A stretch of 64,000 nucleotides of DNA, from positions 160,001 through 224,000 of the forward strand of contig JAJREF010000001.1 in the NCBI GenBank assembly GCA_047459655.1, read 5' to 3'. Below, piece after piece: positions 46,279 through 48,296 of this stretch. Position 1 is the stretch's first letter, and the number at the start of each line of letters is the position of its first letter. The notes beneath the pieces are model-generated. The model had not been told where the DNA came from, did not search any database, and saw only the letters and a list, made by a program, of their open reading frames with translations. Both the position numbers and the translations under genes were made by a program. The DNA is from Rhabdochlamydiaceae bacterium. Lineage in GTDB: Bacteria; Chlamydiota; Chlamydiia; Chlamydiales; Rhabdochlamydiaceae.

Positions 46279-47166
46279 ATGGTTTCAGCCGCAGCTGCCT
46301 CTGATCCTGGAAGTTCTGTCCCCGCAATTTTTCATGATGGTTCTAGACCCTCAGAGTTATATTTTATAACGTCTATCGAAAATGTGCACTCAATTCTCAA
46401 GCATGGAATTTTGTCTCATAAACGGGCGGCTAGCCATAACCCCACAAGTATTGCTAACGATGAGGTTCAGAGTAGGAGAGAACACAAAATATTTTCTAAT
46501 CCAGATCGCGAACAAACAGCTAAAGAACGACTCCCCATTCATAGATGTGTAAATTTGTACATAAGGGCTCACAATGCTATGCTTTTTGTAAAAAAAGAGC
46601 AGAGGGCTGATTTGTGTGTATTTAGAATACATCCACAAATTCTTGGACGGTGCGAGGTTGTCATTGCAGATCGAAATGCATCTAAAGATGACGCACGTTT
46701 TTATCAAGCTAGAGACTTTTGTTTTTCTCCGGTGAGTTCAGAAATGCTTCAAAATCCCCTGTCTTTGGTATGGAATGATAAAGAGACACTAGGAAAAGCA
46801 GAAAAAAGAAAATATGTTAGACAAGCTGAAGTACTGATTCCTTATGCACTCCACCCAAGCTATATCCAAGGAATTTTTGTTGCGGATTCAAGGGCAAGAG
46901 AAAAGCTTCTTAATATAATAAACGGGACTAAATACAAAGATAATTTACCCGTAGACATACATCCTACCCTGTTTTTTTCAACTGATACTAAGAACCGGGA
47001 AGGAACGAATCCTCTTGCACGTATTAACGCCGCTCCTTTGCGTAATGGAGTTTATCCTCGCTTACATGAAGAACTTCCAGAGAGTTCTGATGAGGAACAC
47101 GAAACTCATGTGGAACAAGATTTCTCGCTTCCTATGGAAGAAGATATAGCAGGGGTAGATGAATAG
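46279..47166 (+). CDS. darT: DarT (DUF4433) DNA ADP-ribosyltransferase toxin
   Basis: LYFITSIENVHSILKHGILS, QSRR, VNLY....NAML, ADRNA and catalytic RQAEVLI motifs; AAGGAG RBS; next to a macrodomain gene. Confidence 0.88.
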   Translation: MVSAAAASDPGSSVPAIFHDGSRPSELYFITSIENVHSILKHGILSHKRAASHNPTSIANDEVQSRREHKIFSNPDREQTAKERLPIHRCVNLYIRAHNAMLFVKKEQRADLCVFRIHPQILGRCEVVIADRNASKDDARFYQARDFCFSPVSSEMLQNPLSLVWNDKETLGKAEKRKYVRQAEVLIPYALHPSYIQGIFVADSRAREKLLNIINGTKYKDNLPVDIHPTLFFSTDTKNREGTNPLARINAAPLRNGVYPRLHEELPESSDEEHETHVEQDFSLPMEEDIAGVDE

Positions 47167-48296
47167 CGTAAGTAGATATTTTTTTTGCGCTTCAGAAGGC
47201 AGTATTTACGATGTAACGCGGCGGGGTATTTGGCATGATATGCCTTTGAACCATGGGCTTGATCCAATTTCTTCTTCTACCGTGGTAATTCTTAAAGATG
47301 ATGGAAGAGAAGCAAGTGCAACGGATGTAAAATTGTCTAAATATGTTCGAGTTATATCTAACCCTTCTGCTTATTTAGAGAGTTGGGAAGGGAACCGACT
47401 TAATGTGTTTTTAGTAGAAATTAATCCTAGGATTATAAACAGACCAGACATTTTAAAAATTCAAAGAATTAGAGATAAGAGAATTGAATTTCTAAAAAAT
47501 ATTATGGTCGATTTAAGCGAAGTTCTACGTATTGTTGTTAGCTCCAAGAATGTTGAAAAAAAATTACGCGAGGTTATTAAGGAAGATCTGTGTAAAATTT
47601 CGATTGTTGTTGAGCCTCAGTTATTTGGTTTAGACATTCAAACTTCTTCACATCTTGATAAGGGGGTTGTAATTTCTCAATCTATTGCTCAGCCTGCTGG
47701 ACCAGTCCCTACTTCCGAAAAACTTGATCTTATAAAAGTCTGTAAAGGAGATCTATTACTATCTCCTATGCAGACCCATGTTAATACCGTGAACTGTGTA
47801 GGCATAATGGGAAAAGGCATTGCTTTATCCTTTAAGAAAAGATATCCAGAAATGTTTAAAGATTACGCGAGTAAATGCAAAAAGAAAAGAGGTGAAATTA
47901 GGAAAGCCTTACCCTTATGCTCTAGGAAATGGAAGGACCATCTTGAACTTTCCAACAAAAGGCCATTGGAAAGAAAACTCTAAAATAGAGGATGTTAAGT
48001 CAGGGCTTCAGTATTTAGTTGCACATATTAAAGAATGGAATATCCGATCAATTGCGCTGCCTCCTTTAGGTTGCGGGAATGGGAATTTAAGTTGGGATGA
48101 TGTCTTTCCGATAATGCGTGAATATCTTGCTCCGTTGAATATCCCTGTAGAAATTTATGCTCCCCATGATGCCTATTCTTTTGGACAGCCCCTTCAGGCT
48201 ATTCCGCCAAGACCTCGAAAAAGAAAAAGTGAAGACCAGGGGGCTGGACCATTATCTAAATATTTCAAGGCTGAAGTGAAAGAATGGACGCACTAA
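47159..48296 (+). CDS. darG: DarG-type macrodomain antitoxin with an N-terminal DarT-like domain (one frameshift near 47885)
   Basis: GDLL....QTHVNTVNCVGIMGKGIA, NFPTK.HW and SIALPPLGCGNG.L.W macrodomain motifs; 8-nt overlap with darT. Confidence 0.85.

Follow-up and report, generated by a model that had tools for sequence, protein, structure and literature searches.

We found that positions 46279 to 48296 of the window, the whole 64 kb stretch of DNA analysed here, encode two coupled genes: an intact DarT ADP-ribosyltransferase and, downstream of it, an eraser in which a degenerate DarT domain precedes a DarG-type macrodomain and a basic tail. Judged by sequence, the pair resembles the DarTG2 systems yet falls outside them, since the C-terminal domain of canonical DarG is gone and the NCBIfam cut-offs are missed, and this bears out the preliminary description of an atypical DarTG in an intracellular bacterium. 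Single-chain DarTG is already known (7OMU). An intact DarT paired with a pseudo-DarT eraser is apparently new: no description of this architecture was found in the literature searched. Conserved residues point to a writer and an eraser of ADP-ribose, and at a probability of roughly 0.45 we favour the reading that both may be delivered to the nucleus of a protist host and act there at replication forks. The window corresponds to positions 160001–224000 of contig C1 in genome G000 (1.61 Mb, 81.6% complete); the public sequencing run that best matches this genome is from lake water.

The first gene, darT (46279–47166, forward strand), encodes 295 amino acids, with the ADP-ribosyltransferase domain at about residues 26–233 and the residues R67, Y94, N133 and E184. 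Its presence, already proposed from the letters alone, was established by a match to PF14487 of 108 bits against a cut-off of 22.5 (E = 5e-31), the sole match to this family in G000, and by an RQAE motif containing E184. R67, N133 and E184 align with R51, H119 and E160 of Thermus DarT in the solved DarT structures, the roles of which are described in sections of PMC11281641, and they were invariant in 35 of 35 aligned DarT rows. Guanine specificity was considered on the strength of N133 and rejected, because Asn at the base-recognition position is also present in M. tuberculosis DarT2, as well as in 7OMU, and is not diagnostic. As this Asn is shared with M. tuberculosis DarT2, the probable thymidine specificity of the protein is deduced from its partner only. 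The best PDB match of P0001 was 7OMU. The dN/dS of darT in one close pair was 0.24, so the gene is constrained; against the NCBIfam equivalog profile the protein scored 76.8 bits and did not reach the cut-off of 150.

Both proteins bear non-canonical extensions, as had been noticed earlier. That of DarT (46978–47166, forward strand) begins with a stretch resembling the linkers of DarT-macrodomain fusions and continues with an acidic tail that contains PESSDEE (about 47077–47097). The acidic tail at the C-terminus is 60 residues long, and the motif [PA][EDT]SS occurs in 11 of 12 split-type relatives, in which DarT and eraser are separate proteins. The similarity of the tail to the fusion linkers was reached by 1 of 500 shuffles; at the 5% level (fewer than 25 of 500 shuffles) such similarity was found for only 4 of the 12 split DarTs.

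The eraser gene, gene 2 (47159–48296, forward strand; about 378 aa), starts at 47159 and overlaps the darT stop by 8 nt, in agreement with the coupling reported before. The overlap is 4 nt in five of six other tandem pairs, and darT adjoins the eraser in eight loci, the window included. The reading frame of gene 2 is broken at an A run (about 47879–47883, forward strand), leaving two ORFs of 274 and 158 aa. The break is likely an assembly error, because the orthologues are unbroken (371–375 aa), contigs of two public runs, X1 and X2, have an indel relative to the window at this site, and at least six further frameshifts occur in the window, in mlaF, tamB and tamA, when compared with a congener. 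X1 is possibly the source sample, and across 229 homopolymer runs it showed four private indels that fall in intact frames; the contig of X2 had a depth of 2 and substitutions close to the A run. A true pseudogene was considered and is unlikely on the same grounds. The macrodomain gene of the preliminary description is real, and the frameshift in the assembly had gone unmentioned there.

In gene 2, the DarG/TARG1-type macrodomain (47726–48173, forward strand) was matched by PF01661 in two pieces, and PADLOC called it DarG. It keeps equivalents of N22, K80, W83, G117, G119, N120 and G121 of the Taq DarG macrodomain, residues whose roles are given in sections of PMC5179494, and the catalytic-lysine motif FPTK was found in 28 of 28 other macro-type members of the family. 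As the partner of DarT, the protein matched Macro only and not NADAR. The C-terminal domain of canonical DarG, the ssDNA mimic that binds DarT according to parts of PMC7003065 and PMC11543638, is absent: NF048014 was matched at positions 1–155 of its 338, the intact orthologue gave the same partial match, and about 40 residues lie beyond the macrodomain. The intact orthologue scored 215.4 bits and did not reach the NCBIfam equivalog cut-off of 250. The name DarG had been applied to gene 2 correctly as far as the macrodomain goes, with the loss of the canonical C-terminal domain overlooked. In sections of PMC5179494 and PMC7003065, the macrodomain by itself is described as enough for an antitoxin.

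What had been called an extension of gene 2 is present, and its real nature had escaped attention: by profile comparison and structure modelling, the N-terminus of the protein is a degenerate DarT domain (47177–47629, forward strand). Weak DarT matches to this region were returned by PADLOC and NCBIfam, and HHalign aligned it with DarT over 147 columns at a probability of 97.7% (E = 1.4e-12). A model was built from 59 sequences, in none of which the modelled position is occupied by an intact DarT domain, and reached a pLDDT of 92.7; the top eight Foldseek rows were all DarT chains, and the best structural match was 7OMU (Z 14.1, rmsd 2.5, 146 residues aligned). According to the profile alignment, the equivalent of Arg51 is absent and the substrate loop is deleted, while the catalytic position is Glu in 16 of the 59 rows. 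The domain is predicted to be catalytically inactive. An active second transferase in gene 2 was rejected, as the Arg and the loop are gone and the Glu, present in the window copy, is not kept throughout the family.

In the one close pair compared, purifying selection acts on the degenerate domain, and its dN/dS of 0.20, similar to the 0.24 of DarT, indicates that it has been maintained. Its predicted role is in binding or targeting, without catalysis. A role in binding DarT only is weakened by fusions of the domain to PLD proteins in two genomes that gave no DarT match; these fusions suggest that it does more than bind DarT. A complex prediction for DarT with the degenerate domain scored 0.01, which bears on binding neither way.

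Searching 1.84 billion representatives with a profile of the degenerate domain yielded 69 clusters, 29 with a macrodomain, 31 with PLD domains and 9 others; the family is not named in Pfam. A taxon was assigned for 2 of the 30 clusters that were looked up out of the 69. Among genomes sampled, the domain was found in 4 of 400 from the chlamydial phylum (one of them a weak match to a fusion DarT), in 6 of 400 from the class of G501 and in 1 of 63 from the order of G502, both of these being Coxiellaceae; the DarT profile matched 1 of 22 genomes from the order of G501. Within this sample, drawn from the chlamydial phylum and from the class and orders of these two genomes, the domain is confined to chlamydiae and gammaproteobacteria of the Dot/Icm type. 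It should be added that such a restriction could mirror gene exchange in a shared niche, which speaks against a link to the host.

All five newly found carriers possess DotI and DotD (5 of 5, kin and not independent), and DotD occurs in 33 of 140 genomes sampled from the same class; these two proteins were used as markers after the search for the DotA family gave no match anywhere. One of the five has a full split pair and another, G940, a 5′-truncated darT beside an intact eraser; the remaining three, two of the PLD type and one of the macro type, gave no DarT match. The draft genome G938 has an eraser, and no darT was found in it. Ankyrin, WD40 or kinase genes adjoin four of the five new carriers, and the neighbourhood of locus L058 contains integrase, KAP-NTPase and PDDEXK genes. 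Among 129 plasmid records, none covered 80% of the query; the 15 listed match the macrodomain part.

PF14487 was found in 30 of 401 genomes of the chlamydial phylum. The 30 loci returned comprise nine canonical DarT-DarG operons, three single-chain DarT-macrodomain fusions with an intact DarT (L039, L040 and L041, from three chlamydial genomes), one fusion-type DarT that runs off the end of its contig, three split pairs, of which the window has one, one fragment and 13 weak matches of another family. The split-type DarTs form one clade (support 100/98) and the fusion DarTs a separate one (100/99). The mean score against the degenerate-domain profile was 26.6 bits for fusion DarTs and 22.0 for split DarTs, as compared with 6.6 for short and 9.6 for classic ones. 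In addition, 7OMU, in which one chain matches both DarT and macrodomain, was the second-best PDB match of the intact eraser orthologue.

Given the clades in the tree and the profile scores, the simplest account, likely and with moderate support from these sequence comparisons, is that a gene fusing DarT and macrodomain was duplicated to give the pair. One copy would have kept the writer and part of the linker, and the other the eraser, with its DarT fold losing catalysis. A branch setting split and fusion DarTs together apart from the others appeared in 743 of 1000 bootstrap trees, and a frequency of only this height stands against the fused-gene origin. A quick macrodomain tree left the origin of the split pair unsettled.

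Compared with known systems, the pair is most readily set beside DarTG2 of Thermus, M. tuberculosis and EPEC, with which it shares the coupled two-gene order, a DarT with equivalents of Arg51 and Glu160 and a downstream DarG-type macrodomain with the equivalent of Lys80. It differs in the N-terminal degenerate DarT domain, the missing C-terminal DarT-binding domain, the acidic tail on DarT, the basic tail on the eraser and scores below the NCBIfam cut-offs for both proteins. The Thermosipho africanus DarTG in 7OMU, which we take to be a natural fusion of DarT and macrodomain in one chain, has the domain order of gene 2, and no C-terminal DarG domain is evident in the matched chain; in our case the DarT half of the fusion is degenerate and a separate intact DarT lies upstream. 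DarTG1 (DarT-NADAR) has the DarT fold and Asn at the base-recognition position in common with our pair, the partner there being NADAR and here a macrodomain. The Legionella proteins SidE/Lem26 and MavL are likewise a writer and an eraser of ADP-ribose encoded as genome neighbours in an intracellular bacterium (sections of PMC12522546), but their target is an arginine of ubiquitin, whereas the present pair has the residues of DNA-acting DarT and DarG and its export is putative. Human TARG1 belongs to the same macrodomain class as gene 2, and removes DarT marks at replication sites according to parts of PMC8501950; unlike the eraser, it has neither a DarT-fold domain nor a paired writer.

As regards the surroundings, the pair lies in a variable cargo slot. 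The left edge of the slot is a divergent gap of 181 nt (46098–46278), and its right end is the tamB stop at 48406. The gap had been put at about 180 nt; we measured it from the second ATG of the upstream gene, at 46097, which was taken as the start because the orthologue starts agree. Promoter-like sites in the gap numbered 5, against 6.4 expected by chance, and a terminator scan was also at chance level. No defence or mobility gene was recognised among the listed ORFs at 36–58 kb, nor by Pfam searches of nine neighbours, as had been stated before.

Two genomes of the same genus, G358 and G096, keep the chaperone run and the tamB flank, and hold in the slot a Fic gene and an AAA ATPase gene, respectively; neither gave a PF14487 match for DarT. 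Other split pairs that were inspected adjoin an HsdR-N gene, sigma-54, lipB, obgE, or integrase or ankyrin genes, the names lipB and obgE being presumptive. Among 989 ORFs of G000, darT and the eraser rank at the 4th and 1st percentile for GC3. The module is acquired cargo, and its adjacency to the chaperone operon is incidental. A functional link to that operon, and with it the meaning the preliminary description had attached to the position, was given up, since both congeners keep the flanks and carry other cargo between them. The neighbourhood is variable, which had been named beforehand as a point against the proposal, as had relatives that are ordinary DarTG; the relatives found are not of that kind.

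The four-gene run next to the module and outside it (43876–46097, reverse strand) includes a SycD/LcrH-like chaperone (45214–45609). This TPR gene scored 99.9 bits against TIGR02552, with a cut-off of 104.8, and was the sole match in G000. Its three neighbours in the run had no Pfam or NCBIfam family match, one hydrophobic segment was seen in one gene and none in the others, and PF04888 had no match in the 81.6% complete genome. The term translocator operon, which derives from the gene order in Chlamydia, is plausible for this run. The contig also carries the type III core gene sctV, at a distance of about 344 kb (TIGR01399, 897.7 bits). On an ad hoc and crude composition score for N-terminal type III signals, DarT ranked at the 99th percentile and the eraser at the 59th, and the split DarTs ranged from the 32nd to the 99th. 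The eraser fold begins at residue 7, which leaves scant space for an N-terminal type III signal and tells against a journey to the host nucleus. Effectors need not be linked to a chaperone operon, as described in parts of PMC12522546.

The basic tail of the eraser was examined together with those of its relatives, taking the 45 residues after the macrodomain in 32 erasers and, as controls, 307 C-termini encoded on contigs of the five carriers with Dot/Icm and 989 from G000; the motif patterns were chosen after the sequences had been seen, and kin among the erasers are not independent. An NLS-like motif was found in 7 of 32 tails, as compared with 1 of 307 and 6 of 989 controls. The strict PCNA-box-like motif was present in 5 of 32 (2 of 307 and 9 of 989 in controls), and over whole eraser tails such a motif occurred in 6 of 32, the shuffles giving 0.12 on average. 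The textbook PCNA box was found in 2 of 32 erasers, which was not significant against 48 polar control tails. Six of about 32 erasers have a basic cluster followed by a PCNA-type core, as do 8 of 989 C-termini of G000. The window copy is one of the six: its NLS-like motif PRPRKRKS (48207–48230, forward strand), containing RKRK, precedes the PCNA-box-like core LSKYF (48252–48266, forward strand), which is without the canonical Gln.

A bacterial clamp-type motif at the tail position was seen in 4 of 13 canonical DarGs and in 0 of 32 erasers with the degenerate domain; the tails of the 13 canonical DarGs contained no PCNA-type motif. PCNA-box-like motifs were not enriched in the linkers or tails of the PLD-type proteins, and the NLS-like motif was found in none of the 12 split DarTs. 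With regard to the eraser family, it is unfavourable for the host-nucleus reading that the tail motifs are confined to a minority of its members, that the window copy has no PCNA-box Gln and that the split DarTs have no NLS-like motif.

The idea of a secreted writer and eraser draws indirect support from the tail motifs and from the distribution of the family. Host replication forks are favoured as the place of action because the eraser tails carry eukaryotic-type signals, effector secretion systems are present in the carriers, and in human cells with TARG1 knocked out DarT works at PCNA-positive sites; the latter is reported in sections of PMC8501950, whose authors also consider that a DarT might be secreted. 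After its putative export, the eraser would enter the host nucleus by means of its basic motif and dock on PCNA, and the outcome would be a reversible brake on host DNA replication. Before export, the eraser would also protect the bacterium itself.

The pair may instead be a cytoplasmic variant of a toxin-antitoxin system, in which DarT marks the bacterium's own or phage ssDNA, the macrodomain erases the marks and the tails are drift; its use would be phage defence, a replication brake or self-maintenance. We consider this only somewhat less probable than action at host replication forks. The coupled, overlapping genes, the Fic or ATPase cargo in the congeners' slot, the low GC3, the decay of the toxin with retention of the eraser in G940, the defence-like neighbours in L058, the sufficiency of the macrodomain as an antitoxin and the canonical DarTG of the nine inspected chlamydial loci all agree with it. 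Indeed, the coupling, the slot shared with Fic, the truncation in G940 and the L058 neighbours have a toxin-antitoxin-like look that counts against the host-nucleus reading. What the cytoplasmic variant leaves unexplained is the enrichment of NLS-like and PCNA-box-like motifs together with the missing bacterial clamp motif, the association with Dot/Icm, and the degenerate domain on PLD proteins in the two genomes without a detected DarT.

Chlamydiae can shield amoebae from giant viruses, and the target in the host cell could be the DNA of a co-infecting giant virus, which the delivered pair would mark while a nuclear eraser spares the host DNA. The evidence for export is the same as for action at host forks, and such a division of labour would suit an eraser in the nucleus and a writer lacking NLS-like motifs; DarT is also described as an anti-viral DNA modifier in bacteria in parts of PMC9503650 and PMC11543638. 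Orphan erasers and PLD fusions would nevertheless require a separate account, and we consider this improbable. Similarly improbable is a reading in which the eraser matters most, as a TARG1-like hydrolase in the nucleus that clears ADP-ribose marks set by the host or by competing microbes, and darT is a dispensable passenger. The eraser without a detected darT in G938 and with a darT remnant in G940, the degenerate domain joined to other enzymes where no DarT was found and the confinement of the nuclear-type motifs to the eraser would be expected in that case; against it, darT is intact, constrained in the one pair compared and beside the eraser in eight loci, and G938 is a draft genome.

Returning to the delivery of the pair to the host nucleus, we propose a broader version of it, tentatively and at somewhat less than even odds: an anti-phage DNA modifier may have been re-aimed at eukaryotes. 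Chlamydiae and Dot/Icm bacteria would send a thymidine ADP-ribosyltransferase and a PCNA-docking eraser into protist cells, where the two would switch the replication of the host or of giant viruses off and on. A PCNA box and an NLS would have taken the place of the bacterial clamp motif in the eraser, and the dead DarT fold would have turned into a portable domain for targeting, used by PLD enzymes as well.

If this is true, eukaryotic replication would be the target of an effector pair that marks bases reversibly, and the pair would give a hint of what TARG1-like erasers guard against. The degenerate-domain family offers concrete candidates for secreted DarT effectors. Even if the pair acts in the bacterial cytoplasm, it would represent a third way to build a DarTG system, in which a fusion was duplicated and a pseudo-enzyme kept.

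Frameshifts break many of the housekeeping genes in the window, among them those for the phosphate transporter, mlaF, tamB, tamA and hemL (37097-38086, 42166-42974, 50895-53646 and 53790-55639), and mlaF, tamB and tamA are unbroken in the congeners. Caution is advisable with any gene that is split in this assembly.

The run of four genes on the minus strand at 43876-46097 contains the sole SycD-like match of the genome. Its 261-aa gene was present in 3 of the 129 family genomes, all from one genus, and diverges faster (33-58%) than its flanks (70-94%). In the congener G358, the gap between this chaperone run and tamB is occupied by a Fic gene (L036:5540-7000); a copy of the 3' end of tamB flanks it, in a pattern like that left by site-specific integration. 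Short palindromes of the CCTCATGA / GTGAGGA type, noted by eye, are repeated in the gap in all three congeners. Elsewhere in the window, a 537-aa ORF (35059-36672, minus strand) gave no Pfam match; it is possibly effector-like.

Three chlamydial genomes encode DarT and the macrodomain in a single chain (L039:5904-7289, L040:6581-7798 and L041:7263-8663); the catalytic Glu is present in all three fusions, and Fic, LRR or kinase genes adjoin two of them. In genome G054 the pair is split but arranged head to head rather than in tandem (L042:4266-6069), and its eraser is shortened and has no basic tail. Among canonical-type DarGs, 4 of 13 (in L050, L052, L053 and L055) carry a bacterial clamp-type motif directly after the macrodomain, which suggests that these proteins are recruited to the replisome.

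A weak C-terminal DarT match was found in further chlamydial proteins, mostly of 480-1160 aa (loci L020-L032, e.g. L026:328-1764 and L028:1-3069), with the motifs G[ML]LS..E, Y..D.FG and E[VI]M[VI]K.RIP at the match. No Pfam ART match was obtained for the three that were scanned; one protein has a NUDIX domain by Pfam scan. They are an ART-like family of their own.

The degenerate domain also occurs fused to a full DarT (P0033), to a macrodomain plus GNAT (P0065, P0066 and L073:7213-8568) and to DUF5710 (P0075). In about half of its family the fusion is with a tandem PLD protein of roughly 470-740 aa (P0036, P0038, P0040, P0042, L074:7623-9158 and L075:6593-8257, among others). Basic clusters are frequent in these members, and pattern matching found an NLS-like motif in 9 of 31. 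Two genomes with a PLD-type member have Dot/Icm genes, and neither gave a DarT match. The PLD-type members are possibly a family of nuclease or lipase effectors.
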